From contig CAYYGL010000001.1 of the NCBI GenBank assembly GCA_964471235.1, forward strand, positions 5,315 to 69,314: a DNA stretch of 64,000 nt, written 5' to 3'. The translations under genes and the position numbers were made by a program. Below, piece after piece: positions 8,692 through 47,823 of the stretch. The DNA is from an uncultured Calditrichaceae bacterium. Its GTDB lineage: Bacteria > Calditrichota > Calditrichia > RBG-13-44-9 > J075. The number at the start of each line of letters is the position of its first letter. Position 1 is the stretch's first letter. The notes under the pieces were generated by a model. The model worked only from the letters and a program-made list of their open reading frames with translations, did no database searches and was not told where the DNA came from.

Positions 8692-8765
8692 GCGCCCGTA
8701 GCTCAATTGGATAGAGCATCGGACTTCGGATCCGAGGGTTGGGGGTTCGACTCCCTCCGGGCGTG
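8692..8765 (+). tRNA. tRNA, anticodon read as TCG (Arg)
   Basis: The 74-nt cloverleaf has acceptor GCGCCCG/CGGGCGT, D-stem GCTC/GAGC, anticodon stem TCGGA/TCCGA with loop CTTCGGA (anticodon TCG), T-arm GGGGG-TTCGACT-CCCTC, and discriminator G. CCA is not encoded and a T-run follows. Confidence 0.8.
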
Positions 8766-8947
8766 CAATTTTTTTGTACGGCTTTGTGATGCGGTACTCA
8801 GTGGCTGAATGGGTTTGGAAAAAGATGCGGTTATCACCTTATTTACCTTTGCTTTCATCATTCCGCTCTTCCTGCCGGTGACGCCCTCACAACCCCGTCA
8901 GGTTTAATAATTCAATTATCATCTCAAGTTAACATGAAGGATTTCTC

Positions 8948-31203: not shown

Positions 31204-31752
31204 CTATTCCTCACTTTCGTCTAAATATTTTCCCGGGTTGCGATTAAAATCCTCGGATTTGCCTTTTGGAATACTCAACGACTCCCAGGCGTCGCCGGTA
31301 AAGTGTTTCGCCAGGAAAACGATTTGTCCCACATGGTAAGCATAGTGAGAGAGCTGTCGAAGCAGCGCCTGGCTAACCAACAGCGGCTCCCCGCGAATGG
31401 TGATGGTACGGCTTAAATCCGCTGGCGTCAATGTTTCCAGGGTATTGGTTAGAATTTGCCATCCGGTTTCCCATTGCTTATGGAGGTTGTTAAAATCATC
31501 ATCTTGGGTAATTTCAAACTCCATATCCCGGTGACGATCCGGCTTCTCACCGTCGGTAGTAAGAAAATCGCGCCAGCGGGATCGCATATTGCCGGCAAGG
31601 TGTTTCATGATCACCGCAATCGAATTGGATACCTCCTCATTCAGGGAGTCGAACATCTCTTCAGTGTTTACCTGGGATATCGCTCCATCTGCCAGTTGAC
31701 GCAGCCGGGAAAATTCCCGACGAATATCGGTTAAGAATTGCTCCAGATTCAT
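31204..31752 (-). CDS. DinB-like/DUF1572 family protein, translationally coupled to the upstream helicase
   Basis: HYAYHVGQIVFL C-terminal motif, as in the 20367 paralogue. Its ATG overlaps the helicase TGA (ATGA) at 31749-31752. Confidence 0.55.
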   Translation of the reverse strand: MNLEQFLTDIRREFSRLRQLADGAISQVNTEEMFDSLNEEVSNSIAVIMKHLAGNMRSRWRDFLTTDGEKPDRHRDMEFEITQDDDFNNLHKQWETGWQILTNTLETLTPADLSRTITIRGEPLLVSQALLRQLSHYAYHVGQIVFLAKHFTGDAWESLSIPKGKSEDFNRNPGKYLDESEE

Positions 31753-34121
31753 ATTTTACCTCCGGTTGGTTTGTCGATAACGGGCAGGGATTTCCGTTTG
31801 TGCAGGGGCACTCCCTGCGAGTGAAATATCGTTATCTGTTGTGTATTGAATTCCAGCAAATAGTGTTGAATGATTAATTCCGCAAGATGTTGAATTCTTT
31901 CCACATCGGAAAAAGTGTTGATAGTCAACTGTTCCGGTAGGGCATAAATTTTTTGCCCGTCGGCTTTTAATATTTTTGGCAAAATCTCCGGATGGATAAT
32001 GAGATGATACAACTGCTGGGCAGATTTAAAGCGCAGTGTTTCCAGGTAAAGGCGATCCCAATCCACCACATCCCAGATATCTTTGTTGACAGCGACCGGT
32101 TTTGCACGGGATACTCCGGAGTTTCCTACTCCCTCTGATGTGATTTGTGAAAAAACCGGACGGATATCAACCCGGAGCTTTTTCAGGATGTTATTGTTCA
32201 CGGAAACTTCTACTGCCGGTGCGTTCCCGTTTTCTGAAGAAACAGGTGGTGTTATTGCCGGCTCCAAAGCAGGTGTGGAGGATGTGCCGGGTCGATCCGT
32301 TCGCTTATCTCTTCCGTTTGTCTGAATCCCTTCTTTGACAATGGCGTTCAAAAAGGCGTTCATATAATCTGCGTTCAGTCCGTAAATATAAAGTGTTTGT
32401 AAGCAGGCGATTTCCGGGCGGGCAGTGGCTTCTCTCCTCAGAGAAAAATCTTTTCCTTTCAGGCGAACCCCTCTACCGAATAGCTGAATAATCTGGGGAC
32501 CTTCTCCTTTTCCCATGTTCATCAATACCATGGTCGAGACCCGCCAGCTATTCCACCCTTCGATAAATTTTTTTGCACCGATAAGCAGGTTGATGGGAGA
32601 ACGGGCAGTATTGATATCCTCAAACAGGGAGGCGGAAAAGTAATCCGGTTTCACCTCGATTCCATTGCTTGCCAGCAGTTTTTTGAGCGGCGCAACATTT
32701 CCAACATGGATAATGCCGAAATAATTCCCGGCTCCGTTGGTTTTCAATCCTAATTCTCCATCGCCATGTAAAATTTCGTAAACTTCAAGTTCCCCGCTCC
32801 CATGAAATACCAGCCGGAATAACTTCTCCTGTTGTGCCTGCCGATCATCCGCTGGGGAATTAAGCAAGTCACCCACAGGGAGATTTGCCGGTATCGCCGA
32901 TAGAATCCATTGGATGTGTTCCCATAATCGCCCCGGATCATGAAGAATTTTTTTCGGGGACATCGTGATTGAGAGGATGTCGGAATCCTGCTTTTTTCCC
33001 GCCACCCGGCTGCCCACAAACACCCAGAGAGGTTTCTCAAGCTGGTAAGTGTTTATATCGATTTCTCCGGACTGAAAAAGGGAAAGCTGCCGGTAAAAGG
33101 TTGACAGTGCCCCGGACAGCACCCCCTGTTGCACTTCCGGTGTGTAGTGATCTTTATGAAGGTTCACCGCCTGGAACGCCTTGCCATACCTGTCTTCATA
33201 GAAAAAACGGTAAGAAAAATCAAAAATAATGGATTTGGCATATTCCGAGAGTAGAAAGCTATTCTTGCCGATTACCTGGGCAAAAGTAGCACTGTATTCG
33301 ATAATTATGCCCTGGGTTGCCAGTTTTTCCCGCAGGGTCTTCCAGCGTTTTTCCTCGGATTTCTGCCCCTTATGCCCCTCATCGATGAAAATGAGGTTTT
33401 TCCCTTCAAAAGCCGCGACATCCACCCTTACCCCGCCGGAAAGTTTTTGGTCCATCAACTTGTGAATGTCGATGACCAATACCTCATTTCGGCGGGTATA
33501 AAGGTTGTCCGGGTTGCCGTCATATAACTTTGCTGGTATGCCGCTCAGTTGATACTCCTGCCAGTGTTGACGGGACATACCTTCGTTTGGGGTGATCAGC
33601 AAAATATTATCCCAGGTGAAAGGGGTATAGTGCAGCACCTGCCAGTAGTTGATGTGCATAATCAAAGTTTTACCGCTGCCGGTTGCCATCCAGTAGGCAA
33701 TTTTGTGTAGGTCCGGTTCATGAAATGGCGGAATTGACTGCGAATGACGTCGATTAAATTCTTCTAAAAACAAATTTAAGTCGGATAAAAAGCCGGAGAC
33801 ATCGGTAAACAACCGGTCAAAATAGATTTCGCTGAACAGGGCTGCCAACTGCTGGAAGTATTTCAATCGGAATTGGGGTTGTTGACGATTGGCGCGCAGA
33901 CGGGATTGGTAGGAGTCAATCGATTGTTGGTAGTTGAATAATTTTTCCGGTGATAGTTTAGAACGCCCGCTTTGTTGTAAAGCATCCCAGAACGTATCAT
34001 GGAACTTAACGGATGAAACAGGGGAGGGGAGAGGGAGTATTGCTCTCAGGCGAGCAAACTCATCCACCCCGAGTAAATCCAGGAAAAAATGAAACAGGAC
34101 CAGGTGTTTTTGTAATTTCAT
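31749..34121 (-). CDS. SF2 helicase, ResIII-type (type III restriction Res-subunit-like) with DEGH box
   Basis: Motif I WMATGSGKT, motif II IFIDEGH, motif III YSATF, and motif VI QLFGRGVRL. It has a ~145-aa N-terminal and ~240-aa C-terminal extension without an obvious PD-(D/E)xK motif. Confidence 0.75.
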   Translation of the reverse strand: MKLQKHLVLFHFFLDLLGVDEFARLRAILPLPSPVSSVKFHDTFWDALQQSGRSKLSPEKLFNYQQSIDSYQSRLRANRQQPQFRLKYFQQLAALFSEIYFDRLFTDVSGFLSDLNLFLEEFNRRHSQSIPPFHEPDLHKIAYWMATGSGKTLIMHINYWQVLHYTPFTWDNILLITPNEGMSRQHWQEYQLSGIPAKLYDGNPDNLYTRRNEVLVIDIHKLMDQKLSGGVRVDVAAFEGKNLIFIDEGHKGQKSEEKRWKTLREKLATQGIIIEYSATFAQVIGKNSFLLSEYAKSIIFDFSYRFFYEDRYGKAFQAVNLHKDHYTPEVQQGVLSGALSTFYRQLSLFQSGEIDINTYQLEKPLWVFVGSRVAGKKQDSDILSITMSPKKILHDPGRLWEHIQWILSAIPANLPVGDLLNSPADDRQAQQEKLFRLVFHGSGELEVYEILHGDGELGLKTNGAGNYFGIIHVGNVAPLKKLLASNGIEVKPDYFSASLFEDINTARSPINLLIGAKKFIEGWNSWRVSTMVLMNMGKGEGPQIIQLFGRGVRLKGKDFSLRREATARPEIACLQTLYIYGLNADYMNAFLNAIVKEGIQTNGRDKRTDRPGTSSTPALEPAITPPVSSENGNAPAVEVSVNNNILKKLRVDIRPVFSQITSEGVGNSGVSRAKPVAVNKDIWDVVDWDRLYLETLRFKSAQQLYHLIIHPEILPKILKADGQKIYALPEQLTINTFSDVERIQHLAELIIQHYLLEFNTQQITIFHSQGVPLHKRKSLPVIDKPTGGKI

Positions 34122-34289
34122 CGCAAGCTTATATCATCATTCGGATAATTATAACTTTATGTCAATTCGATATAAAAAAATAGAACGCGGATGGACCCGG
34201 ATGACCCGGATTTTCGCAGATTTTTTTGATATGATAACCAATCATCCATGTAAATCATCATTTGGGTTCTATGTCAAGTTACGTCGAAC

Positions 34290-35111
34290 TCACGTTAACT
34301 TATTTAAAAGCCAATCGCCCAGGAATTTGTCAAGTGTCATTTTGTGCATCTCATTATATCCAAACAAAATTCTCTGTTCCTTGCGATGGGGGTCGAAGAA
34401 TGCCGGCGAGCGCACCGCTAACTTTCTCTCCTGCATAAAATTGTAAATATAGCAGGTGGTTGTGTCCTGTTCCGGTAAAAACATCAGGTAAAAGCGAAAA
34501 TTTTTCAGCATCTCCGGGTTAACAATATCCGTAACAATTTCCCGAAACGAAAGATATTGCCCATGCCCGATGCTGCCGCCTCCCTGAGTATAGAGCTTTT
34601 CTTCCAGCAATGTCAACCGATTATCGGCTTCGTGAAAAATCAGAAAATCAATGTCAGTGCTGGCAACCCTGCCGTACATATTCAGGCGTAAAAATTTGCT
34701 TAATGACGATACCCGGGCACTTTCCCTGATCGTTGCGGTGCTGGGTTGCCACTCTTCTTTGCCATCACACTTTAAGACTTGTAATAAAAATTTTGCCAGA
34801 TGGTCCGGATTCTCAAATGACTTTTGGGTGGCGGCTTTTAAGCTTCGGATATGGATTCGGTCCTCTTCCCAGAAGATGTTTCCCAGTCGCAATCCAGCGG
34901 TAAAAAATGGTGCTATCTGCAGTAAGGCATTGTCCTCAAACTCCCTCTCACTCTTACATTCTTTCAGCAAAATATATCGGGAAGCCGGATTCGGATTAAT
35001 CCGATGGAGGCAGGTGGCAAAGAACAAATTGCGAAAAATCCGAAAGTCAAAAATTGCATTCAAACGACTGGGACGGGTGCCATAAATTTCATCTTTTACC
35101 GGTTTTGCCAT
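34290..35111 (-). CDS. Hypothetical protein (273 aa), first gene of the AT-rich block
   Basis: A long ORF co-directional with its neighbours. It is AT-rich with no recognised motifs. Confidence 0.45.
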   Translation of the reverse strand: MAKPVKDEIYGTRPSRLNAIFDFRIFRNLFFATCLHRINPNPASRYILLKECKSEREFEDNALLQIAPFFTAGLRLGNIFWEEDRIHIRSLKAATQKSFENPDHLAKFLLQVLKCDGKEEWQPSTATIRESARVSSLSKFLRLNMYGRVASTDIDFLIFHEADNRLTLLEEKLYTQGGGSIGHGQYLSFREIVTDIVNPEMLKNFRFYLMFLPEQDTTTCYIYNFMQERKLAVRSPAFFDPHRKEQRILFGYNEMHKMTLDKFLGDWLLNKLT

Positions 35112-35175
35112 GTATTAAGTTGCGTTTGTTGCTGTTAAATAGATTTTGAACACTACATTACTTATGTAAAAATTT

Positions 35176-35709
35176 TTAAGTTAAATTGGGTACCCAAACT
35201 GAAAAATATTTTAGCCTAAAGTCAATATCCATTTTTATTCCGGCATCCACAAGGCAGTTAATACCTAATATGGGGCGCGCTTCTTTCCATTCATTACGGT
35301 AAGAATGATTGAAAATAGCTGCTCCACCATTCACATCAATGCGATAAGGATAGTTAGCAAAATTAGGCAAATTACTGCACAACCAGAGCGTTAAATCACG
35401 CGTGGGTTTTCGAGTCATGCTGCCATCCGAAAGTTCTACATCCACGAGACCGCCGATAGGACCACTGAGTGAAATACCTACTTTCGAAAGAGTCTCCTTT
35501 GTTATAATGGCATGGCTACAACCGGTATCGATCATAAATTCTATTGCCGGGGCTCCCATGGGAGGTGTATCAACAAATGGTTCGGAAATGAGCATCAAAA
35601 CCCGAATTTCGTTAAAAGATTTAAGGGATTGGTCACTGGATCTGAATTTAGCAAATGGCATTTTATGAATAAACAAGTTCATGATCTTATCCCTCCTGGG
35701 TGACAACAT
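35176..35709 (-). CDS. Retropepsin-like aspartic protease (clan AA, single-lobe, presumably dimeric)
   Basis: The catalytic FMIDTGCSHAII (hydrophobic-hydrophobic-D-T-G-S) and the downstream ILGINCLV match the retroviral-protease ILGxDxL flap/closing motif. 177 aa. Confidence 0.6.
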   Translation of the reverse strand: MLSPRRDKIMNLFIHKMPFAKFRSSDQSLKSFNEIRVLMLISEPFVDTPPMGAPAIEFMIDTGCSHAIITKETLSKVGISLSGPIGGLVDVELSDGSMTRKPTRDLTLWLCSNLPNFANYPYRIDVNGGAAIFNHSYRNEWKEARPILGINCLVDAGIKMDIDFRLKYFSVWVPNLT

Positions 35710-36382
35710 TTATGTATCTCCGTAAGTCAAGAGGAGGAGGTAATGGTTCAATTCGTCTTACCAAAATTTCATTCAAATTATAATTTTCTTTTTTTAAGAC
35801 TTTATATATTTCTTTTTTTGACGGTTCAATAGCTATTCGAGATTCTCCTCGGTAGGCTACCCATTTACCGGGTGCGGTTTCCATAAGCAATGGAAGTTCT
35901 TGTTGAAATTTTTCCCATCCGATTGATTGGAATTCAGATAGTAACAACGTATCGAACCGTTTTGTGATACGTTCTATCGTAAAATCGATGAGTCGATCTA
36001 TCTCCCGGGTTTGAAAAGGGGGAGATTCTTTAACTTGTTTTAATAAGTTCAAATCTTCAACTTCACCACATTCACACATCCACCACAGCGAAGCAATGAA
36101 ATCTTCTTCTGTTGCCGGAGAAACTAAATCTAACCGGCGAGTGAGCTTCTCATAAGTGAAGGGAATAATATGCCATTCTTTTTCAATTTTTTGCCATTCG
36201 TTATTGCTGCAATGTTTGGCGCTGTGAATTATGCCTGAAAGGCAACTTCCGATTAATGTGGCGACCTGGCGTTCGAAGTCCAATTCTTTTTCCGGAAGGA
36301 TATATTTTTCGCTTACTTGGATTGCCTGATGAAGATTGCTAAAGAGTTCCTGAACTCCCGGGGGGTTATGAAGTGAGATCAT
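35687..36382 (-). CDS. Hypothetical protein (231 aa) overlapping the retropepsin-like gene start by 23 nt
   Basis: The ORF shows operon-style overlaps on both sides. It has a Cys-containing segment WWMCECGEVED and no recognised family. Confidence 0.45.
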   Translation of the reverse strand: MISLHNPPGVQELFSNLHQAIQVSEKYILPEKELDFERQVATLIGSCLSGIIHSAKHCSNNEWQKIEKEWHIIPFTYEKLTRRLDLVSPATEEDFIASLWWMCECGEVEDLNLLKQVKESPPFQTREIDRLIDFTIERITKRFDTLLLSEFQSIGWEKFQQELPLLMETAPGKWVAYRGESRIAIEPSKKEIYKVLKKENYNLNEILVRRIEPLPPPLDLRRYINVVTQEG

Positions 36383-36384
36383 TT

Positions 36385-36804
36385 TTATCTTTTTCCCTTC
36401 TCATTTTTGTTTAATATGTTGTTAATCTCTTCAACCAACTCAAACTCTAATAAGTTTATTTTTCTGAAGAACCAACAATTTTTTTCTGTATAAAATTTCT
36501 CAGCGATGTTCGGATCAGCTACATGGGTAAAAATAATCACCGGAAGAGTTTTATTAACCTCCCTGATTTTTTCATAAAAACGAATTCCGGTACGAAATCC
36601 CATCTGTGTGTCATCCAGGTTAAAGCTCTTTCCTGGCGGCATCATAATATCCAAAATTATTAACTCAATTCTTTTAGAATGTTCTGTAAGAAAATAAAGA
36701 GCATCATCCACATCCGTGCATAATTTAACTGAATAACCGGACTCTTCCAATTCCATAATATAGTTCTCCATTCTTCTTTTTTCGTCATCAACGAAAAGTA
36801 TCAT
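36385..36804 (-). CDS. Stand-alone response-regulator receiver (REC) protein
   Basis: ILFVDDE and LIILDIMMP (phospho-acceptor Asp) and a conserved T and K further on. 139 aa, no output domain. Its start overlaps the kinase stop by 17 nt. Confidence 0.75.
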   Translation of the reverse strand: MILFVDDEKRRMENYIMELEESGYSVKLCTDVDDALYFLTEHSKRIELIILDIMMPPGKSFNLDDTQMGFRTGIRFYEKIREVNKTLPVIIFTHVADPNIAEKFYTEKNCWFFRKINLLEFELVEEINNILNKNEKGKR

Positions 36805-39800
36805 GGGGGAACTCCTTTAATCTTTTGGGAATTAAAACATGAAATTCGGTTGGCTTATACCGGTTTTTTAAAATTAAATCCCCCCCCAACTCCTGCATTG
36901 TTTTTTTAGCGATTGGTAATCCCAATCCAGTGCCTGCCACATCTTTATTTATCGCTTCCGGCGTGCGATAACCTTCTTCAAAAATTTTTTCTTCATAACT
37001 CTTACGAATCCCAATACCCCAATCTTTAAACTTGATAATATAATACTCCCGGTCTTCATCTAAATCAATTCGGATCGCAAATTTTTCAGGGTCATCTTCT
37101 GCGTATTTTATCGCATTTGTCAATAGGTTGTGAACAACAGAATTCAATTTGGAACGATTTACGTAAATTTTTATTTTATGGGCATCTTTTACGTTAAAAT
37201 AAATTTTTTTGTAATCAAGCCCCTTACCCACTACCAACGGATTGAACTGCTTAATTGACTTGATGATAATATCACGGTAAACAATGGTGCGTTCCTTTTT
37301 AGAACTCGGCGATTCACCGCCCAGTAAATGTTGTATCTCCTCTATTTTCAATTTTAATATTTCACAATCTGTCAGTATATCATCAAGCTTGGCTTTATAA
37401 AGGTGAGATGGGAGGTTCGGCAACCTTCGTTTTAAGAAAGATGTGTTGCTTCTGATGCCACCAAGTGCAGAATTAAATTCATGTTGAATTTTTTCCAATA
37501 ATAGTTGTCTGTGTTGCTCCAGTGCTTTTACACTATATTCCACTAATCCTTTTAAGATTTGAACATCTCGTTCATAAATATATTTACGATAACCTTTTTG
37601 ATAGCCTGCTTCTACCGTTCCCATGACCTGGTTCTTTTTTGCGGTTGCAATCATCGGAATATAGACTCGTAACAAGCGATCATGATGGAACCGCTTATAA
37701 ATATGAGTATCATATCTTTTGTCATCACTCCCCGGTGCCTCAATTTGTCTATTCCTGACCACATCTGCCTGGATATCGTTACTGTTCAAGGAGTGAATTG
37801 CTAATTGTTTGAAGATTTCTTTTTCTTCATCCGGGATCCCAACCACATATTCAGTTTGAATCCTATTTAGCTCTGGAATGACAAACGAAATGTTTACATA
37901 TTCATATCCCAACGTTTCGGTAATGGCTTTTGAAACAATTTGAACAATTTCAGTTCGGTCACTGGTGCCAACAATCTCCTTCTCAAATTGTGCCATCTGG
38001 GTTAATTTCTGGTCGAAATCTAATTTCTCGAACATAATAGCAGCATGACGGGCTAAAGACCACAAAATCACCTCATCGGATTTGGAAAATGCATTGAGGG
38101 CAGGGCTTTCAATATTCAACACACCAATCGGTTTTGACCCCCATCGAATTTCTTTTCCCACCCGAACTTCAGCATTGGAAATCACTATCGGAACTGCTAA
38201 TTCGGAACGGGTATCATCCCAACATTTAACGTAAATATCCTTCCACTCACTGCTATGGACATTTCCCACTCGGATAGGTCGTTCGGCGGACAAAGCCTTC
38301 CCGGTAATTCCCCGACCTAATTTAAGAGAATGTTTTCGGGGAGGTGAGCCACTGTATTCAACCAGATGTAATAAGCCGGTTTTAAAATCCAGCCGACTCA
38401 CCCAACCTCTTTCCGAGTCTACCAATTTTAATCCTTCATCCAAAACCAACCTCAACAGTTCGTTGACATCTCGTGTTTCTGCCATTTGTTTAATAACTTT
38501 ATTAAGCTTTTGAAACCGGCGTCTGCTGTTTAAATTTTCAATGGCAACCGAGGTCTGTAAAGCCAGGGTTTTGAAAATGTTTTTATGCCATTTGGTAAAA
38601 TGACGTTCATGTTGGAACGAATATACTTCAATAATGCCAATTACTTTTTTTCCATAGGATAATGGCATTGCCAGCATGGATTTCCAACCTAAATTTTTAA
38701 CTAATCTGTAATAAGGATGAGTCTCTATGACACTGGCATCTTCCAGATAGTAAGGTTTGTTTTTCAGTAAAAAGCGGGTTAAACATTTACTATCATTTCG
38801 TAGTACCAAATCCTTAAGGGGGGCTCCCTGCCCTTCCGGGATACTGTATTCTGAAACTACGAAACCATCTTTATTCTTATCATGTAGCCACACAATACAG
38901 ATTGGTTCGCTCATCAAATCTTGGGTTAAATTCACCACCTTTTTTAATAATACATCCAATGATTCTAAATGAGTCATCAATTCCGGTAGCTGGAGCAATA
39001 TATCGTTTAGCATGGCTTGCTCAATCGCCAGAGCTACTTTCTGAAGCACTTTTAGTAGGGATGGAAAATCATCCGAGTTAAAAGCATCCGGTTTACTTTT
39101 TCCTACACTCACCGTAGCAATAACAGCATCTCCTGACTTGATAGGAGCACAATAAATTGAATCACCAATATTAAACCCGCCATATTTGGGGTCAGTGGAA
39201 GCATTGCGACAGTAATAAGGTTTTTTAGTTTTTGCAACATATCCTGCAATACCCTTTTCTATAGGAAACGAATGTTGAATTTGAGTGCCAATCCGGGGAT
39301 ATATGGCTTTAAGTTCCAGTCGATTGGTGGCTTTATTCCAAATTCTCAAACAACACGAATCGGCGTTGGTTATTTTTGCACAAGTTTCGACAATTCGGCT
39401 CAGCTTTTGCTGAAATTCCCCGGCATCTACATTTTCATAAGAGATTTCAGCGGAAGTATCTAACAATTGAGATTGGTATCGTAAAATTTGACTTTCGCGC
39501 ATTAATTCGGCTTTCTGGATTGAGAATGCAGCGTGATTGGCAAAAATACCGAATAATTCCTTTTCCCAAACTTTAAAATGGCGTTTGGTTTTGGTATATA
39601 AATTAAGCATGCCAATTAACTTCTCTTCTCCAAACCACATTGGGGCACTCAAAAGCGATATCCAACCTCTCTGTTTTGCTTCGCGAGGATGACTATACAT
39701 AGAGTTCGGTTTGGTAACGTCTTCAAGATACCCAACTTTTTTACCGGTTAAATGTTGTTGAATCCCTGGAAAATGAATATCCAATTCCAGTTGTTTATAT

Positions 39801-40540
39801 TCTTCGTCCACTTCTCCAGTGGTTGCAACAATCTTCAATTTGGTTAAGCTGGCATCCAACATCCAAATGATACAGATTGGAACGGAAAGTAATTCGGAGG
39901 CTTTTTCAGAAACTATTTGTAAAAATTCATGAGGTGTTAAATTCTGCAATTCACGGGATAATGAATACAATATGCTTAGAGTTCTTTCCAACATTCGTAG
40001 ATAATCAAACCTTTCAATAGTCAACACAGCATGTCTAGCAAAAGATTCGAGAAGATGAATTTCATCCGGGGGAAATTTCTGTAGTGTGTTGGAAAAATGA
40101 TTAAAATAGCCGATGAGATGATTGTCACTTTTTAAAGGGTATGATAAAACTGATTGTAAATCATACCTTACGGCTATTTTGGGATTAGCTACACCTTGAC
40201 CAGATTTTTGTAGATTATACTTCTCTATAATTTCTCCGGAAGCGAATAAATTATAATCAAGAGAAGTCGATTTACCTGATGAACTGTTTGTTCTGGTATT
40301 CCTGAACGTGTAATATGCATATTTTTTAAAATGATTATCAAAACCGGCACAGGCGGCAAGTTTCAAAGTCTTGGTTTCTTGATCAATAAGAATGAGTGTG
40401 CAGGCGTGGGAATGAAGGGCTTTTTTACCCAATTCTGTTAGTCGATTCAGTGCCGACGCTTTATCTTTATATAGAATCGGTACTTTACTTAACTCATTTA
40501 TGAGATCTACAAAATCGATTTGTTGAGTAGAGGTCCCCAT
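36788..40540 (-). CDS. Sensor histidine kinase with multiple tandem GAF domains (about five) and C-terminal HisKA + HATPase_c
   Basis: 1250 aa with repeated GAF-like modules. It carries an H-box (…QHEFNSALGGI…), N-box NLLTNAIKYA, G1 DWGIGI and G2 GTGLGLPI. There is no TM segment, so it is cytoplasmic. Confidence 0.85.
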   Translation of the reverse strand: MGTSTQQIDFVDLINELSKVPILYKDKASALNRLTELGKKALHSHACTLILIDQETKTLKLAACAGFDNHFKKYAYYTFRNTRTNSSSGKSTSLDYNLFASGEIIEKYNLQKSGQGVANPKIAVRYDLQSVLSYPLKSDNHLIGYFNHFSNTLQKFPPDEIHLLESFARHAVLTIERFDYLRMLERTLSILYSLSRELQNLTPHEFLQIVSEKASELLSVPICIIWMLDASLTKLKIVATTGEVDEEYKQLELDIHFPGIQQHLTGKKVGYLEDVTKPNSMYSHPREAKQRGWISLLSAPMWFGEEKLIGMLNLYTKTKRHFKVWEKELFGIFANHAAFSIQKAELMRESQILRYQSQLLDTSAEISYENVDAGEFQQKLSRIVETCAKITNADSCCLRIWNKATNRLELKAIYPRIGTQIQHSFPIEKGIAGYVAKTKKPYYCRNASTDPKYGGFNIGDSIYCAPIKSGDAVIATVSVGKSKPDAFNSDDFPSLLKVLQKVALAIEQAMLNDILLQLPELMTHLESLDVLLKKVVNLTQDLMSEPICIVWLHDKNKDGFVVSEYSIPEGQGAPLKDLVLRNDSKCLTRFLLKNKPYYLEDASVIETHPYYRLVKNLGWKSMLAMPLSYGKKVIGIIEVYSFQHERHFTKWHKNIFKTLALQTSVAIENLNSRRRFQKLNKVIKQMAETRDVNELLRLVLDEGLKLVDSERGWVSRLDFKTGLLHLVEYSGSPPRKHSLKLGRGITGKALSAERPIRVGNVHSSEWKDIYVKCWDDTRSELAVPIVISNAEVRVGKEIRWGSKPIGVLNIESPALNAFSKSDEVILWSLARHAAIMFEKLDFDQKLTQMAQFEKEIVGTSDRTEIVQIVSKAITETLGYEYVNISFVIPELNRIQTEYVVGIPDEEKEIFKQLAIHSLNSNDIQADVVRNRQIEAPGSDDKRYDTHIYKRFHHDRLLRVYIPMIATAKKNQVMGTVEAGYQKGYRKYIYERDVQILKGLVEYSVKALEQHRQLLLEKIQHEFNSALGGIRSNTSFLKRRLPNLPSHLYKAKLDDILTDCEILKLKIEEIQHLLGGESPSSKKERTIVYRDIIIKSIKQFNPLVVGKGLDYKKIYFNVKDAHKIKIYVNRSKLNSVVHNLLTNAIKYAEDDPEKFAIRIDLDEDREYYIIKFKDWGIGIRKSYEEKIFEEGYRTPEAINKDVAGTGLGLPIAKKTMQELGGDLILKNRYKPTEFHVLIPKRLKEFPHDTFR

Positions 40541-40617
40541 GCTAGAATCCTCCTTCGGACTGGGGAATAGCTCAAATAAAAAAGTAGTAAAACTGCATTT
40601 TCCCCATATCCGACCTA

Positions 40618-41397
40618 TCAGTTACCAGGGAAAATTAAAGGTAGTTCAACATTAAGTTGGTTTGTAGTTGTTGAAAACGTACCAACTTTTATCTTAAGCG
40701 AATCAAATTCAAAAAAGACACTTAATCCTTCAGAATCGGTTCCCGTTAAATTCTGATTTGGTATTAATAGATGAAGGGTTAACTTACCCTTTTCGTCAAT
40801 GGAAAATCGTACAATTTGAAAGTGGATGTCACAGTGTGTAATTTCCGTCACGACACGTACTTTGATATGATGGGGAATAAAACATCTATCATCTAAAATT
40901 TTTTCTTTCTGCAAATGATAAATCCTGGCACTTGCTACACGCATTACCGGAAAAGGGGTTGGTTCTACATCAGAGATTGGTTCTACATCAGAGAATAGAG
41001 AGCTTGTAGTAGATTCGCATACTAACCATTTATAAACTTCATGTAATATTTCCCTGGCAGATGTGTCATTTTGTTTTGCGCGGTTTATCAAATCGATTAG
41101 ACTACTTTTTCTTGCTTCGTTTAGTTTTTCAGCCATTTCAATTTGTTCAACTGTTTTTTCCGCAAGTGATTCAATTTCCCTTTGCGAGAAAGTCGGTTCT
41201 TTTTCAGATTTAAATGGCTCAAATAATAACTCGCCTGCAACTTCCGTTTGAATCGCCTTTGCAATCTGTTTTCGAAGTTTCGGATACCTACCAAAATAAT
41301 AATCAATGTTTTTAGATCCACCAGAACGTTTTGCCCTGATGTATTCATCGACGATTTTAGTAATCTTATCAGGTTTATAGACACTATTCCGGCTCAT
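40618..41397 (-). CDS. Hypothetical protein overlapping the sigma-factor stop (candidate anti-sigma / partner protein)
   Basis: The 14-nt overlap with the sigma-like gene is typical of sigma/anti-sigma pairs. It contains a perfect 18-bp tandem duplication (40959-40994, SDVEP repeat) and no recognised domain. Confidence 0.4.
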   Translation of the reverse strand: MSRNSVYKPDKITKIVDEYIRAKRSGGSKNIDYYFGRYPKLRKQIAKAIQTEVAGELLFEPFKSEKEPTFSQREIESLAEKTVEQIEMAEKLNEARKSSLIDLINRAKQNDTSAREILHEVYKWLVCESTTSSLFSDVEPISDVEPTPFPVMRVASARIYHLQKEKILDDRCFIPHHIKVRVVTEITHCDIHFQIVRFSIDEKGKLTLHLLIPNQNLTGTDSEGLSVFFEFDSLKIKVGTFSTTTNQLNVELPLIFPGN

Positions 41398-42388
41398 GTT
41401 TGTCCTGCTTATTATTTCCGATAATAACTTCCTTCTCTAAAAAATTATAAATTTTACGACGAACTAGATGAGCATTTTTCGTATCCCCGGCTATTTGGGC
41501 ATACGTCTTCAAATGTAGGAAATGTTGGGTTGCTTTAGCGGAGGCAGAATTCGTTGAGACCGAGGTAAAAGAAATTACAATTTTTCTATTTGAATATGCA
41601 GAAAACCATTTTTTTTCAAATTCCAGCGCGTTTTTTAATGCTTGGTGGTTCCCGTCTATTACTGGGAATAAGTCTTTCAAATCATTCATCGACAGAATTT
41701 TAGCAGTTCGTAAGGATTGGCAATATTCATCAAGAATATCGGTAATTATAATATCTTGTAATTTTTTTTGAGCTCTCTGTGTCCTTTTGCGAATCGTCGC
41801 TGGGTTGATATCTTGAAACACATAAGCGATTTCTTCATAGGTAAATTCTTCACAAAATCGAAGCAATAACAAACTCCTGTCCTGATGAGGAAGACGTTTC
41901 AGAAAATTATTTAATTGGATTTTTTTTCTATCTTGTAAATCATTATGTACAGTATATGCAAGGGGTTGATTTTCTAACTCCCCCTCAACCATTTCTTTTT
42001 CAATATCCCGATCACGAAAGTTGGGATTATCTAAAGATATTACGATCAGATGTGGTTTTCTTTTTCGGGCGGTAAGGATTTGTTTATTACAAATCCAATA
42101 CAACCATTTCTTAAAATTAGTACCCAACTCAGTTTCGTCTATATCTTCAGGTATAGTAAAAACCTCACGTGCTTTCCATGCCTGAAGAAAAGTCGCCTGT
42201 AATATTTTACTGGTATCAAACTTATCAAATCCTGATCTGGTAATAAAATTCTCCAATTCTGCACCGTATTTTTTAAACAGATAAGCAAAGCACTGTTTGT
42301 CACCTTCCTTAAAGCCCCTAATTATCTCAATTAAGGACATAGGCGTTCTCCAATGTTGTATTTTGATCCACTTGCCTGAACCCCACAT
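41384..42388 (-). CDS. ECF-type sigma-70 family factor with ~130-aa C-terminal extension
   Basis: Region-2-like FLQAWKAREVF and region-4 HTH LLLLRFCEEFTYEEIAYVFQDINPATIRKRTQRAQKKL. The start is possibly at an internal Met. Confidence 0.6.
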   Translation of the reverse strand: MWGSGKWIKIQHWRTPMSLIEIIRGFKEGDKQCFAYLFKKYGAELENFITRSGFDKFDTSKILQATFLQAWKAREVFTIPEDIDETELGTNFKKWLYWICNKQILTARKRKPHLIVISLDNPNFRDRDIEKEMVEGELENQPLAYTVHNDLQDRKKIQLNNFLKRLPHQDRSLLLLRFCEEFTYEEIAYVFQDINPATIRKRTQRAQKKLQDIIITDILDEYCQSLRTAKILSMNDLKDLFPVIDGNHQALKNALEFEKKWFSAYSNRKIVISFTSVSTNSASAKATQHFLHLKTYAQIAGDTKNAHLVRRKIYNFLEKEVIIGNNKQDKHEPE

Positions 42389-42710
42389 CCCTATACCGGG
42401 AAGGCTGTAAATACGTTATTCCTTCCGTGGAGAGTTATGTTTAAAACTCGGTCTGGAAATTACTCATGAAGTATAATGTTATTGTTTTTTTAAAATACAC
42501 TCTTCCCAAAGAAAGAAAAAGAAAAAATACTTTTTACAACTACTTTATAACTATCAACTACTTTTTATTATGTGTGACATATTTTGTAGTATTATTTTTT
42601 TATTTTCCCTTATTCATCTAATCTTAATCCATTTCTGTGGGAATCAGTCCCATCCGTGAAAAATAAGACTATAATTAATATAGAGTATGTAAAATGGGGA
42701 AGGAGCGTAT

Positions 42711-42971
42711 ATGTTCTTAGAAGGTTCATTCAGAAGTTTTTTGGCAGGAAATATTTTTGGGTTGCTTTGGGGCTTCTCCGGTGTTATCGGGAGACGACTT
42801 TTGCAGATTTTTTTTGCTGTCTGTGTAATTGTGGTTATTGTTTTTATTGTTTTTGAGGGAATGGATGATGTCGTAAGTCTTTTCGAGTGGATGTTTGACC
42901 AATTACTAAATTATGTATACTTTGCCATGGGCGTAGTGAATGGTATGTTGATCTCCTATCGGCGCACATGA
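42711..42971 (+). CDS. Possible small hydrophobic protein (86 aa) in the AT-rich leader region, opposite strand
   Basis: Two predicted TM helices. It lies inside a ~700-bp AT-rich non-coding stretch and could be spurious. Confidence 0.2.
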   Translation: MFLEGSFRSFLAGNIFGLLWGFSGVIGRRLLQIFFAVCVIVVIVFIVFEGMDDVVSLFEWMFDQLLNYVYFAMGVVNGMLISYRRT

Positions 42972-43094
42972 AAGTTTGTTAGTTCTAGGTGTTATACTGG
43001 AGTGTGATGGAAGTGTTTTTGCTATCGTAACCTCTTTTGAAATACAATTTTTTCCATTGAGAAATTCCAGAGTTCCAGTCAACAGTATCGCTGT

Positions 43095-45806
43095 TCAAAA
43101 CACAGGCTGACTGCTTTCTTTCATCACTCCTTCAATACTCTCCACACCCGCTAAAGCACAATCGCCATTGATAAAAACACGCCTGTCGGAATATTCCCGG
43201 AGAATGTCGGTAAGAAACTGTTTCTCTGCCTCATAATCCAGGTTGTCTGCCACACGCCAGATTGTGACAACCGGCTGTTCTTGCAGTTTCCCGGTTACAA
43301 ATAAATATCGACGGTTCTGATGGGGGCGAGCAAACACCTGTTCCACCTCTATCCCCAGCCAATTTACAAATGTTTGCACCAGGTCGATTGTGGCGGTTGA
43401 GGAACCCCCGGCGCGGAACAAATTCAACTTGTATTCAAACGGATTGCGCATTCGGTTGATATTCAAAAACGTTGGGCTTTGCCGGGTCTCGCTGGAGAGC
43501 ATATACCGGACGGTGTAGTCCGGCAACTCAGTTAACATGTTCGAAGAATTGCCAAATGTTATGTTTTCAAGCGCATCTTCAAATTGTTCCAATCCCTGGT
43601 AACAGAAAAACCCGCCGCCTTCCCATCCTAAATCCCGGGAAATTTTTCCCGGATCGCCATGCAGCACTTTTTTCATTCGCGGTAAGATGACCGAGTAAAA
43701 ATGCTCTCCCATCTCCACCCCCACCCATTTTCGTTTCATTTTCTGCGCTACGGCAATCGTAGTGCCGGAACCCAGGAAGAAATCCATCACCCATTCCCCG
43801 GGCATGGTGGAAGATTCTATCACACGTTGCAGTAAGGCTTCGGCATTTTCGGTGGCAAAATGATGCCGTTGGGCATACCCGGGAATGTCCAACCACTCAT
43901 TGCCGACCATCTCGCTATCATATAACAACTCCGGCACTCCTTTTATCGTATTCCCGAAGCAATCCACATAACTTTTTTCCGGGTTGATACGCACTTTATT
44001 GCGGGCGATCAGCCGGTCGATTCGCTGCTGAGAAAGCGCCCAGCGGCGGTTCCGCGGGGGATAATAGGTTCTTCCCAGTATTTTCCGGGGACGCTCATCC
44101 TTGCGGGGAAAATGGAGCAGAGGGTACCAGCGCGGGGGGGTCGGGCGTTCCACCGGGTTCGGCTTAAACCGGGGGGATTTGGCATATAAAAACAGAGTCT
44201 CGGTTTTCACGGTAAACTGGGTATCCACCTGCTGTTTTGCCAGGGTGCGATTCACGATAATCTCATTGCGGAAATTATCTTTCCCGAAAAGACGGTCCAA
44301 CATCAAACGGGCATACATGGTTCCATTGTAGTCGCAACGCAGAAACAAGCAGCCATCGGACCGCAGTGATGAATGAGCCAGACTTACCCGGTTCTCCAAC
44401 ATGGTTATCCAGGTGGAATCTTTATACCCCACTTTATACAGGTAATCCGCTTCCTGTTCTTTATTAAAGGGGGGATCAATATAGATGCATTTGATTTTCT
44501 CTTTCAAAAGCGGTGAAATGGTATTTAAGGCAGTCCAGTTTTCACTGTTCCATACGTAACCATCAATGATGTCGGCTAACCGATGGTTTGCTGATAGTCC
44601 TTCCAAAAGCTTTACCTTAAACGACTCATCGAAGAAACGGGTATCAATCGGAAGGTGCTGCCATGTTGGTTGATATAGCAACATTTCCAGTGTTTCCCGT
44701 ACCTCGCTGTCGAAGTGAAAACCGAATAAATCCCGCCATTCCCTTAATTGTGCTGTATTATCGGCAAGCTGTTCTACCACCCACCCCCACAGGTCATTGC
44801 CAGCATAGTGTTGAATGTGGCTGAGGCTGATGACATAATCTGTGCTGAGCACGAAACTTCTTTTCTCCCAGACCTGTTTTTGAAAATCCTCGATTTGCCC
44901 CAGCATTTCAATGACTTTAGCAGCAATGGTATGTACGATCGTTGCCAGATGAAGTTGATAGCGAAGATTGCTCTCGGTCAGAGTGGGGAAATTGTCAAAA
45001 TTGAAAATCTCGGATTTGATATAAAAATCCAATTCGGTTATCAGAAAATTTGCCAGATCCTTGTGGATGAAATAATCCTGTTCATTTTTTCGGGTAAAAC
45101 GGGATAAGTGCTCCGCCAATGTTCTCAGGAAATCATCCGCTACATTGCCGGGTAGGGGGAGTTGGGGGAGTGAGTTTCGAAAAGCTTCCAGAACAGAGGC
45201 ATTGATGTGTTTCTGGGTGATTTTTCCGAAATGCTCCCTCTCCGCTTCTTTCGGGGATCGAAATTCAAAGTAAAAATGAAGTTGGTTTTCCTGAATTTCC
45301 CATGCCGGCCGGGAAAGGAAAAAATATTGTTTATGAGTGCTTTTTATGTTCCCATGAAAAGCCTCTGCCTGCACGATCCGAAATGAGATTTCCCATCCAT
45401 CGTGGGTAAAGCGGTAGCTCTGGAAAAACGGGCTGGATTTAATAAAATACTGATCGTGATTGATCCAGTAGAAGGCAATTTCTTCCCCGTTATAAGGCAG
45501 GATGTACTTATGTTTTTTGCCATAACGCCGTTGGGGAATAAAATCTCCCCCATGATAATAGCGAGAGAAAAAACGAATGAGGTGATTGTAGACCTCGCCC
45601 TCCGGTTCAGCAGCTTTCGGGGCGTCCCGGGTGAGTTTCGGTAAATGCTCCTGAATAAATCCAACCAGATCCTGATTGATAAAGCGCAGAATTTCTTCCC
45701 GCCGATAGCGGATGATTCGATAGATTCCGAAATCCAGATCCGGTTCATTCAGATAGAAAAGGGATTGCAACAGGTTCAAAAATTGTTCTCGGAGAGGTTC
45801 GCTCAT
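43095..45806 (-). CDS. Beta-class N6-adenine/N4-cytosine DNA methyltransferase (type III Mod-like) with 440-aa N-terminal extension of unknown function
   Basis: Motif IV IYIDPPF precedes motif I WVMDFFLGSGTT (beta permutation), with ~240 aa between them as a putative TRD. The N-terminal 440 aa have no recognised motif. 903 aa. Confidence 0.8.
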   Translation of the reverse strand: MSEPLREQFLNLLQSLFYLNEPDLDFGIYRIIRYRREEILRFINQDLVGFIQEHLPKLTRDAPKAAEPEGEVYNHLIRFFSRYYHGGDFIPQRRYGKKHKYILPYNGEEIAFYWINHDQYFIKSSPFFQSYRFTHDGWEISFRIVQAEAFHGNIKSTHKQYFFLSRPAWEIQENQLHFYFEFRSPKEAEREHFGKITQKHINASVLEAFRNSLPQLPLPGNVADDFLRTLAEHLSRFTRKNEQDYFIHKDLANFLITELDFYIKSEIFNFDNFPTLTESNLRYQLHLATIVHTIAAKVIEMLGQIEDFQKQVWEKRSFVLSTDYVISLSHIQHYAGNDLWGWVVEQLADNTAQLREWRDLFGFHFDSEVRETLEMLLYQPTWQHLPIDTRFFDESFKVKLLEGLSANHRLADIIDGYVWNSENWTALNTISPLLKEKIKCIYIDPPFNKEQEADYLYKVGYKDSTWITMLENRVSLAHSSLRSDGCLFLRCDYNGTMYARLMLDRLFGKDNFRNEIIVNRTLAKQQVDTQFTVKTETLFLYAKSPRFKPNPVERPTPPRWYPLLHFPRKDERPRKILGRTYYPPRNRRWALSQQRIDRLIARNKVRINPEKSYVDCFGNTIKGVPELLYDSEMVGNEWLDIPGYAQRHHFATENAEALLQRVIESSTMPGEWVMDFFLGSGTTIAVAQKMKRKWVGVEMGEHFYSVILPRMKKVLHGDPGKISRDLGWEGGGFFCYQGLEQFEDALENITFGNSSNMLTELPDYTVRYMLSSETRQSPTFLNINRMRNPFEYKLNLFRAGGSSTATIDLVQTFVNWLGIEVEQVFARPHQNRRYLFVTGKLQEQPVVTIWRVADNLDYEAEKQFLTDILREYSDRRVFINGDCALAGVESIEGVMKESSQPVF

Positions 45807-45892: not shown

Positions 45893-46693
45893 TTACTCGG
45901 AATCGGATGACGTATCAACCAAATTGTTATCCGAATGCCGGTTTTCCGGGGTAACACGCCGTACCGACAGGGATTCCATATTCCCAATTACAATGTGGAA
46001 AACACCTTGTTCCTGTAATGCCCTTGCCAGTTGGATAGCCCGATTTTCCAGACGAATGTTCTCTACACCGGCAATAAAGAGCACCGTTTGCCAGTTCTGC
46101 CGGAACATTCTGCCCATCCCCCATGCCGTATTGGTAAAATATTCTACCAAAATTTCCTGAGAAAGGGTGCGGGCGTCCGGGAATTTTTTCCGGATTGCCT
46201 GAATAACATTTGGGGTAAATCCTTCAAGGGGTTGATCAACATGCAGGATATTGAAATAATAAACCAGTTGATGCCAGGGAGCGTGTTTTATCCAAGTCGT
46301 GATCTGATTTTTGTCACAAAATATTCGATTGCTTCCATTGGAAACATCATACAGTAGATAGTAATGCTCCGGTAGGCGCTTTTTCAAGTCTGCTACATCG
46401 GAAAAATTAAATCCGATAATCGAATCCCTCTGTACCGCTTTTCCGGCATGAATGACAGGATGCCGGGCAAATTCCTTCCGAAGTTGAGATAATAGAAGGG
46501 AGTTATCCTTACCGATAATCAATTCACCGATGATGGAAAGTTTACGAAATTCAGGGGAGGAAATGATCACCCGTTTTTGCATTCGGGAAATTTCTTCACT
46601 CAACCGATGAATAAGAGATAACCGCTTCTTTTCTCCACAAAAGGCAATGATCCGGCTGTCAGAGTTCACTAAAATACTTCGGTAAAAAAGCAT
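45893..46693 (-). CDS. Hypothetical protein (266 aa) immediately upstream of the methyltransferase
   Basis: A co-directional ORF 86 nt upstream of the MTase with no recognised motifs. Its position is compatible with a divergent restriction-enzyme-like or specificity partner, but unsupported. Confidence 0.45.
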   Translation of the reverse strand: MLFYRSILVNSDSRIIAFCGEKKRLSLIHRLSEEISRMQKRVIISSPEFRKLSIIGELIIGKDNSLLLSQLRKEFARHPVIHAGKAVQRDSIIGFNFSDVADLKKRLPEHYYLLYDVSNGSNRIFCDKNQITTWIKHAPWHQLVYYFNILHVDQPLEGFTPNVIQAIRKKFPDARTLSQEILVEYFTNTAWGMGRMFRQNWQTVLFIAGVENIRLENRAIQLARALQEQGVFHIVIGNMESLSVRRVTPENRHSDNNLVDTSSDSE

Positions 46694-46786: not shown

Positions 46787-47212
46787 TTAAGCATGCCTTC
46801 CTGGCAGCACTTTTAATCCCAGTTCCTGAAAAGAGGCTTTGGTCGTGAATATGTTCCGGATTCGGCGCCGATTCATGAACATATAAGCCGCGTAATCATA
46901 GAGGTTCAAATCCAACTCCGGATGCTTTCTCATCAGTCTCACCGCTTCCCGCTGGGTTTTTCTACCTACCCACAGGATATGTAGGTGTGTTCCGGTATAC
47001 GCTTCTTCAATAGTTTCGTAAAATTTAAAAGCCACCGACAGATTCAGATTGTTTTTCAGGGTGTCAAACGCCATCCCGATAGAAATATTATGGGTAAAAA
47101 AACTGTCACCCTGGTTTAGCATTTGTTGAAATGCTTCTTCAAATACATCATGGTGCTCTGCGGCCGGATTTATCAATTGAACCCAGCCGGTGTCGTCAAT
47201 AAATATCTTCAT
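46787..47212 (-). CDS. vapC: PIN-domain toxin (VapC-like)
   Basis: N-terminal MKIFIDDTG acidic start, ~140 aa. Its ATG overlaps the stop of the upstream AbrB-type gene (ATGA). Confidence 0.55.
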   Translation of the reverse strand: MKIFIDDTGWVQLINPAAEHHDVFEEAFQQMLNQGDSFFTHNISIGMAFDTLKNNLNLSVAFKFYETIEEAYTGTHLHILWVGRKTQREAVRLMRKHPELDLNLYDYAAYMFMNRRRIRNIFTTKASFQELGLKVLPGRHA

Positions 47213-47424
47213 TCCGATTCTGATTTTTGGAGTTTTCCAGCCAGACCAATTAATTGATAAAGGGGATTTTCCGAGAGGATTAAATCCAGGCGCCCGGATT
47301 TAATCTTTTTTATTGACACCTCCACCCGATCCCCCGATTCTAATCGTAATTTTTGCCGCACTTCCTGAGGCAGTATAATGCTTTTATCTTCCTGAATCTG
47401 GGTTACAAACGTTGCAAATTTCAT
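47209..47424 (-). CDS. vapB: AbrB/SpoVT-type antitoxin (VapB-like)
   Basis: A 71-aa product starts at MKFATF with the RBS GAAGGGGA. The swapped-hairpin-like ILPQEVRQKLRLESGDRVEV is typical of AbrB/MazE-fold antitoxins. Confidence 0.55.
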   Translation of the reverse strand: MKFATFVTQIQEDKSIILPQEVRQKLRLESGDRVEVSIKKIKSGRLDLILSENPLYQLIGLAGKLQKSESE

Positions 47425-47823
47425 AAATTCCCCTTCAGTGTATCCACATGTTCCCCTGATCTGAACATCAGGAGATCTCTCCCTGTCCTGACTTATGAAC
47501 ATTCTGAAAAACAAAAAAAATTAGCAATCTTTACTTCCGGTTACAAGACATTTCTATACTTGCAGTTGAATACCTTGTGGGTTCTCATTCGGAACTCAAC
47601 CATTCCATGTCCACACGCAAGAAGGTTGTCCTGGTTAATAAATGCAAAAAAGGAGAGATATTTGAGAAATATATCAACAACCTTACTTTGGATTTGTGAA
47701 CGAGACCAACATACCCCCAGTTGAAAAATGCCTTGGGAATTCATACCAACCGAAGTATCTTCGATAATTAGAAAACAACCACGAGTTTTCCTTGTTTACT
47801 CGGAGTGAGAGGAGAGTAATGAG

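Follow-up and report, generated by a model that had tools for sequence, protein, structure and literature searches.

Do a methyltransferase gene and a helicase gene that lie some 9 kb apart belong to one restriction-modification (RM) system, and if so, what came between them? The question is raised by a 64,000-nucleotide (nt) stretch of DNA from an uncultured Calditrichaceae bacterium (contig CAYYGL010000001.1, positions 5,315 to 69,314; the whole stretch is called the window hereafter), in which a β-class DNA methyltransferase, Mod, and a helicase resembling the Res subunit of type III RM enzymes are encoded on the same strand, on either side of an AT-rich block. Type III enzymes recognize an asymmetric site, methylate one strand, assemble as Mod2Res1, and carry out ATP-dependent cleavage about 25–27 bp away, for which two inverted sites are needed. 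An earlier account of this DNA, made from the letters and ORFs alone (the sequence-only reading), had proposed that the two genes form a type III-like module in mod-then-res order that was split by an inserted cassette. We argue here that the locus encodes a three-protein type III-like RM system, comprising Mod, a nuclease-less Res-like ATPase and a predicted stand-alone nuclease, and that it has been split by a 7,983-bp foreign cassette lying between mod and the nuclease gene. We put the probability of this reading at roughly 0.72.

Mod and the helicase lie 9 kb apart on one strand

The open reading frames (ORFs) of the pair lie, co-oriented, exactly where they had been placed: mod at 43095–45806 (minus strand, 903 amino acids, aa) and the helicase gene at 31749–34121 (minus strand, 790 aa). 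Both have near-host composition, as had been noted, with a GC content at third codon positions (GC3) of 0.53 and 0.51 respectively, as against 0.54–0.58 in the flanking genes. The mod-then-res order is retained over a distance of 8,973 bp from the mod stop codon to the helicase start, and the two genes do not share the single operon of the classical systems. The sequence-only reading also held that the pair is separated by exactly the AT-rich cassette (35112–43094, its main genes all on the minus strand), and this proved too simple. A third gene, encoding a 273-aa protein (34290–35111, minus strand), and an AT-rich spacer of 168 bp (34122–34289, GC 0.36) also intervene, and because this gene has a host-like GC3 of 0.50 and lies between the pair, the cassette is not their sole separator.

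The β-class assignment of Mod was confirmed by its motifs and by profile matches. Motif IV (DPPF, aa 444–447, nt 44466–44477) stands ahead of motif I (FLGSGT, aa 677–682, nt 43761–43778), with the target-recognition region between them, as is characteristic of the β-class N6A/N4C methyltransferases of type III systems (DPPY/F, then FxGxG). The Pfam family PF01555 (N6_N4_Mtase) matched aa 438–706 (1.3e-31), and the PADLOC model MTase_III (PDLC03638) matched aa 7–824, almost the whole length (9e-143). In a PDB sequence search the top matches were the type III Mods 6k0w, 7dsu and 4zcf_A, over the catalytic half, and the protein keeps every residue that is invariant across 28 homologues.

The 440-aa N-terminal extension that had been called unexplained does exist, and its 437 residues ahead of the PF01555 match gave no Pfam match even at E ≤ 1, DUF1156, which had been suggested, included. 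It is not, however, peculiar to this protein. The top 120 homologues are mostly 870–1055 aa long with 97–99% coverage, many N-terminal positions are invariant among homologues, and the region is covered by the PADLOC model; judged by these alignments, an N-terminal domain of about 440 aa is typical of the whole family. The closest Mod relative, at locus L087, is 61% identical.

The helicase is a Res-type motor without a nuclease domain

The description of the 790-aa protein as a ResIII/DEGH helicase was upheld by matches to ResIII (PF04851) and to PADLOC REase_III (PDLC03654, 1e-97), and by the motifs GSGKT (aa 148–152, nt 33666–33680), DEGH (aa 247–250, nt 33372–33383), SAT (aa 277–279) and QxxGRGxR (aa 546–553; Q546, G549-R550-G551, R553). 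A type III Res is defined by GSGKT, DExH and a C-terminal PD-(D/E)XK domain (PMC8259958). The window protein has the superfamily 2 (SF2) ATPase with its Walker A GSGKT and DExH, and lacks a C-terminal PD-(D/E)xK domain on the same polypeptide. That no such motif was obvious had already been remarked; Pfam, alignment and hidden Markov model (HMM) searches likewise found no nuclease domain, and the last 230 aa, in which a nuclease fold was sought, gave no Pfam match and showed no conserved catalytic-looking motif.

By length, the helicase homologues form two classes: of the best 120, about 95 are 1000–1100 aa long and 23 are shorter than 850 aa. Over its whole length, the window protein aligns with roughly the first 760–780 aa of the long forms, whose extra ~260 aa carry a conserved YPDF-x13-FIDPKG, a classical PD...DxK motif, and match the last part of PDLC03654. 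The short relative P0134 of Archaeoglobus fulgidus (775 aa) matches this model only to about position 880 of 1154. No leftover of the long-form nuclease domain was found by tblastn or HMM search anywhere in the 64-kb window. In a neighbour-joining tree the window helicase falls within an all-short clade of seven, and all four other traceable members of this clade (P0122, P0123, P0124 and P0219) share a contig with a member of the 273-aa family. We conclude from these comparisons that the window helicase, which is of full length and keeps all family-invariant residues, is a Res-type motor/switch part that lacks the C-terminal nuclease domain.

The Mod and helicase families are partners

The closest named relatives of the locus proteins in homologue searches come from Calditrichaeota metagenome-assembled genomes (MAGs), and many Mod and helicase homologues were found on shared contigs. 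We scanned one genome per species, which gave 80 loci, and counted partnership over the 49 loci in which the mod homologue is of full length and is followed by 3 kb of DNA or more. The helicase gene lies downstream of mod on the same strand at 47 of these 49 loci, with a gap of < 0.5 kb at 27 and of 0.6–3.5 kb at 20, and is absent downstream at the other two. Thus the observation that the sequence-only reading had named as telling against itself, that Mod and helicase are never adjacent in related genomes, is the opposite of what was found, and by gene order the two families are partners across bacteria and archaea. The gap of 9 kb in the window is the largest seen, the others never exceeding 3.5 kb.

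Co-oriented extra genes lie between mod and res at 20 of the 47 loci (L007, L009, L011–L013, L025, L026, L028, L030, L034, L037–L039, L046, L048, L050, L052, L060, L072 and L078). Most of those scanned are accessory genes of the sort typical for toxin-antitoxin or defence modules, including a helix-turn-helix (HTH)–peptidase M78 gene with DUF4411, AAA_21 with DUF4276, Fic, DUF1016/YhcG and PRiA4_ORF3; nucleotidyltransferase/HEPN-like pairs, judged by eye, also occur. Because co-oriented extra genes fill these gaps, the mod–res junction appears to be a frequent landing site in the long-form family.

The third gene encodes a probable nuclease

In the closest paired locus, L001, the order is mod (912 aa), a 271-aa ORF and the helicase gene (761 aa), with overlapping stop and start codons. 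The window 273-aa ORF is 48–60% identical to the ORF between mod and helicase in L001 (48%), L087 and L095, and the nuclease and helicase genes overlap by 8–16 nt in L001, L089 and L095, as against their separation by 168 bp in the window. The family matches no Pfam, NCBIfam or PADLOC model. A word-indexed search gave 14 clusters, and an exhaustive profile search of 1.84 billion representatives gave 77 matches at E ≤ 0.001; at 50% identity the family falls into about 70 clusters. Nearly all of the 77 are stand-alone proteins of 230–270 aa or shorter fragments. The handful of exceptions are for the most part very long proteins matched in several stretches, and in no case does the match form a Res tail. 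Scans of JGI metagenomes and IMG/VR added no further loci for this family or for the cassette gene at 35687–36382.

Five residues, D153, D155, E170, E171 and K172, do not vary among 38 members, the most distant of which are 21% identical, and lie in the family motif TDIDF-x12-lvEEK (D153-x-D155...E170-E171-K172, nt 34596–34655). The core of PD-(D/E)xK nucleases has the topology α-β-β-β-α-β, an acidic residue starting one strand and the (D/E)xK lying in the next. In the AlphaFold model of the 273-aa protein, whose N-terminal half is weak and whose predicted local distance difference test score (pLDDT) is 80–90 from about residue 150, D153 and D155 stand just before one strand and E170-E171-K172 lie in the next.

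A comparable arrangement is found in Archaeoglobus fulgidus (L083/L084; CP006577.1, 1300788–1315115). Locus L083 has mod (966 aa), ORFs of 138 and 154 aa, and a helicase gene (775 aa), and so resembles the window both in its short nuclease-less helicase of the same family and in the small ORFs between mod and helicase. The 138-aa ORF carries QDIDF-x13-FVEEK, which aligns to the motif of the 273-aa protein, and the Archaeoglobus helicases form a separate short clade in the helicase tree. Similarity to the 273-aa family does not reach beyond the motif region (a two-sequence search gave 13.8 bits), the N-terminal half being absent. On this alignment and tree, a nuclease-less Res accompanied by a small nuclease-like ORF in the mod–res gap would seem to have arisen here a second time, independently.

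The cassette interrupts an operon that is contiguous in relatives

The AT-rich block has a GC content of 0.35–0.40, as against 0.45–0.50; for the cassette the range is 0.33–0.41, and its six co-oriented genes have a GC3 of 0.27–0.38. Both of its junctions recur in independent assemblies (L002; L085/L086), and the AT-rich block is therefore not an assembly chimera. It is absent from L001 and L087, and also from the syntenic locus L095, where the order is peptidase M48, DUF480, GATase, MazE-like, a 142-aa gene and a 271-aa gene, then mod, nuclease, helicase and FKBP. The genes that this locus shares with the window have the same order and orientation; identities are 60% for the peptidase, 61% for GATase, 56% for the MazE-like protein and 57% for the product of the window's 141-aa gene, and 48–49% for the three RM genes. 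In L095 mod overlaps the nuclease gene by 16 nt, so that all three RM genes form one operon with no cassette, and in L087 the nuclease gene begins 13 bp after mod.

The comparison with cassette-free syntenic relatives that had been suggested thus yielded an uninterrupted mod–nuclease–helicase operon. Given this empty site and the foreign composition of the cassette, its insertion into a once-contiguous operon, between mod and the 273-aa nuclease gene, is the most economical reading of the sequences. Together with the partnership of the two families at 47 of the 49 loci, the uninterrupted operon supports the original proposal of a type III-like module split by an insertion, with the nuclease gene now added to it.

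A proposed split three-protein system and its alternatives

We envisage that the ancestral state, still present in relatives, was a translationally coupled mod–nuclease–helicase operon, and that the AT-rich foreign cassette, with its extracytoplasmic function (ECF) sigma factor, GAF kinase, receiver and three proteins without matches, would have been inserted after mod. The nuclease and helicase genes would have come to be parted by the 168-bp spacer as well, and the expression of Mod would now be separate from that of the restriction genes. If the mechanism resembles that of EcoP15I (PMC4490356; PMC8259958), Mod would act as a dimer that binds an asymmetric site and methylates a single strand. 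The ATPase would associate with Mod and, upon hydrolysing ATP, convert the complex to a sliding state; when a second complex is met, cleavage would be made in trans by the 273-aa nuclease, carried by either the ATPase or Mod. The three proteins would thus form one enzyme in which the 273-aa protein is the catalytic subunit for cleavage. Type III restriction needs Mod for site recognition (PMC8259958). Since without Mod there would be no targeting, uncoupled expression should not be suicidal, and the separation of mod would be tolerated. The system is probably still functional, because all three RM ORFs are of full length and keep all invariant residues.

Several results weigh against this reading. 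The whole-model pLDDT of the 273-aa protein is only 64, and a Foldseek search of PDB with the model returned nothing significant: Hjc, PvuII and HincII headed the list, but the best E was 0.1. In addition, a PDB sequence search with the nuclease profile gave no match, and sub-threshold Pfam matches to NERD, PDDEXK_4 or YhcG_C occur in only 4 of 38 members. It is on account of these weak Foldseek, PDB and Pfam results that we call the protein a probable, not proven, PD-(D/E)xK nuclease. An hhalign comparison of the family with the long-helicase nuclease domain found no relation (probability 0.1%). We therefore set aside homology between the two as undemonstrated, and treat any replacement of the Res nuclease domain as non-orthologous. 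The cassette bears neither a mobility gene nor a target-site duplication. The 168-bp spacer holds sigma-70-like hexamers (TTTATA-17-TATAAT and TTGACA-18-AATGAT), and our promoter/terminator scan, with 49 promoter-like sites as against 38.8 ± 7.3 in shuffled sequences, was not above background and demonstrates no promoter for the nuclease and helicase genes. Finally, distant members of the 273-aa family adjoin complete type III systems, in which Res itself bears a nuclease motif, and some close relatives have mod alone; these two observations underlie the first two of the alternatives that follow.

The 273-aa protein could be a nuclease of accessory or independent function that accompanies type III loci, in which case the Mod–helicase pair would be non-cleaving or would use another nuclease. 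At L096–L098 (JGI 3300024432, JGI 3300009488 and ENA ERZ27251131) a member of 268 aa (34% identity) directly follows a canonical mod (668 aa)–Res (838 aa) pair, this Res ending in NPDF-x12-EIK, and at L090 a member is divergent from a mod (960 aa)–Res (1131 aa) operon that bears the long-form nuclease domain. Such members show that the family is not simply a substitute nuclease, and the lack of profile similarity to the Res nuclease domain, noted above, also speaks for an accessory role. In the window's own clade, on the other hand, the gene is wedged between mod and helicase with overlapping codons, precisely where the helicase has lost its nuclease domain, and the analogous small ORF (DIDF...VEEK) is found at that position in the Archaeoglobus clade, whose helicases were shortened independently. 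We therefore consider a purely accessory nuclease unlikely, if still to be reckoned with. No family member occurs within 10 kb of any of the 80 long-form loci. At L096 the member is followed by genes for a BglII-like endonuclease and a Dam-like methyltransferase, which makes the region a defence island, and the 668-aa Mod there is 44% identical to the catalytic domain of the window Mod and has no N-terminal extension.

Slightly less probable again is decay, in which Mod would live on by itself, as an orphan or epigenetic methyltransferase, and the uncoupled nuclease and helicase would be unused or being lost. Translational coupling is broken at both junctions (by 7,983 and 168 bp), and near the closest Mod homologues nuclease and helicase genes are often missing over 8–10 kb, as in L088, L091/L092, which share the window's upstream genes, and L093. 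In the Calditrichaeota MAG GCA_003695285.1, mod (54% identity) lies on L088 and the nuclease–helicase pair on another contig, L089. The solitary genes of L088, L091 and L093 indicate that mod can persist without restriction genes, and the window arrangement might be a step in that direction. Against decay stands the intactness of the three ORFs, in which every family-invariant catalytic residue is kept; moreover, a Res-type protein needs Mod only in trans, and physical separation need not inactivate it. After the mod gene of L088 come LapA/LapB, SPOR and further genes of housekeeping type, and the pair on L089 lies behind a divergent glycosyltransferase gene.

More speculative, and in our view quite improbable, is the suggestion that the cassette works as part of the locus, its imported ECF sigma factor and two-component module controlling the nuclease and helicase genes so that restriction responds to a signal. 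The cassette genes are co-oriented with these two genes and directly upstream of them, across an AT-rich 64-bp spacer in which there is no terminator-like site; but the cassette is foreign in composition and absent from every related locus examined, and no gene in it is tied to RM or defence beyond weak PADLOC matches to generic domains.

DISARM (defence island system associated with restriction-modification) consists of the helicase DrmA, DrmB (DUF1998) and DrmC (PLD) with either DrmD/DrmMI or DrmE/DrmMII, and BREX (bacteriophage exclusion) of the PglX methyltransferase, the PglZ phosphatase and the BrxC ATPase (with BrxA/B/L). That Mod and helicase are unrelated neighbours or belong to a system of this sort, as the sequence-only reading allowed on account of the short helicase, the long Mod and the 9 kb between them, is scarcely credible, since none of 10 ORFs scanned matched a PADLOC DISARM or BREX model, no PglZ, BrxC or DUF1998 domain was found with Pfam, nor any PLD domain, PADLOC placed both proteins in type III models, Mod scores there only on RM-type (II/III) and orphan methyltransferase models and has no DUF1156 in its N terminus, and the partnership is kept in 47 of 49 genomes.

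Returning to the three-protein system, the evidence prompts a broader proposal, that the 273-aa protein belongs to a hitherto undescribed stand-alone nuclease family that is dedicated to type III-like systems, and that in at least one clade it displaced the Res domain to give a three-subunit Mod/ATPase/nuclease enzyme. We advance this as a whole tentatively, at a little short of even odds; the members beside complete type III systems hint at a wider accessory role.

Relation to known systems

Like the classical type III enzymes EcoP15I and EcoPI (Mod2Res1; PDB 4zcf), the window encodes a β-class Mod with DPPF ahead of FxGxG, and downstream of it an SF2 ATPase with GSGKT and DEGH. It differs from them in that its Res has no nuclease domain and the gene for a separate 273-aa PD-(D/E)xK-like protein lies in between, in the extra ~440-aa N-terminal domain of Mod, which has no Pfam match, and in the lack of contiguity of its genes. 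The helicase family also differs in having no sequence-detectable match to any solved structure, a PDB search with the helicase profile having returned nothing, EcoP15I Res included.

A further affinity is with a large, uncharacterized family of long Mod (~1000 aa) and long Res (~1040 aa) proteins (PDLC03638 and PDLC03654), to which the window proteins are 38–47% identical over their full length, with the same gene order. This family is widespread among thermophilic bacteria and archaea, among them Dictyoglomus, Aquificota, Methanothermobacter and Asgard archaea. Its Res ends in the ~260-aa domain with YPDF...FIDPKG, in place of which the window clade has the 273-aa gene. A conserved third component of a type III system has a precedent in Eco86II and related systems, in which the third gene encodes a helicase-like ATPase 5′ of mod (PMC8259958). 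The Eco86II-type Res keeps its own nuclease, whereas in the window the extra gene itself encodes the predicted nuclease and it is Res that has lost the domain.

What is new here is a three-gene type III-like form with a split Res, and the main weight falls on the stand-alone nuclease family. If our reading is correct, motor and nuclease are separate proteins whose activities could be studied and mutated independently, and such a split system would show how a nuclease is recruited after ATP-triggered sliding. Annotation pipelines built on two genes would miss one component, and may label such loci nuclease-less helicases. The mod–res junction of the long-form family often takes up foreign genes, the 8-kb regulatory cassette being the largest insert seen, and the frequent retention of mod without restriction genes in the window's clade bears on the origin of orphan methyltransferases.

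Genes of the cassette

All six cassette genes are on the minus strand, and domains were assigned with Pfam and NCBIfam. After a non-coding stretch of 706 bp (42389–43094) that follows mod, they encode an ECF-type sigma factor of 334 aa (41384–42388), a 259-aa protein without a match (40618–41397), a histidine kinase of 1250 aa with five GAF domains (36788–40540), a receiver-only response regulator (36385–36804), a 231-aa protein without a match (35687–36382) and a 177-aa ORF with a weak retropepsin-like match (35176–35709). The sigma factor has a C-terminal extension of about 120 aa past region 4, and the kinase has HATPase_c in addition to its GAF domains and no HisKA match at E ≤ 0.01.

The cassette contains no integrase or transposase, has no convincing terminal repeats and is not flanked by a tRNA gene, the sole RNA gene detected in the window, tRNA-Arg(TCG) (8692–8766, plus strand), being 25 kb away. 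Short imperfect repeats were considered as marks of insertion and judged to be due to chance. One of them, a 19-nt near-repeat (17/19), GATTTTCGCAGATTTTTTT at 34209–34227 and GACTTTTGCAGATTTTTTT at 42796–42814, lies in the AT-rich non-coding stretches downstream of the nuclease gene and of mod.

Neighbouring genes

A DinB-family gene (DUF1572, 1.2e-61; 31204–31752, minus strand) overlaps the helicase stop codon by 4 nt. The position after the helicase gene is taken in L001, L089 and L095 by a convergent FKBP gene instead, and synteny therefore ends at the helicase gene's 3′ end.

Directly upstream of mod, a gene at 45893–46693 (minus strand) encodes a conserved neighbour of 266 aa that has no significant Pfam match and no NCBIfam or PADLOC match. 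Homologues lie directly upstream of mod in L087 (46–48% identity), L088 (32%) and L091 (33%), and L095 has an unrelated 271-aa gene in this slot. Two unrelated families thus occupy it, one (X) in the window, L087, L088 and L091, the other (Y) in L095 (271 aa) and, alongside the X gene, in L091 (280 aa).

Further upstream, a MazE/AbrB-like ORF (47209–47514, minus strand) overlaps a 141-aa ORF (46787–47212) by 4 nt. Its homologues are only 72–73 aa long, and the true start of the window ORF is therefore probably internal. The pair is probably a type II toxin-antitoxin system whose toxin has no Pfam match; it is 50–61% identical in L091 and L095, where it adjoins the same GATase gene.

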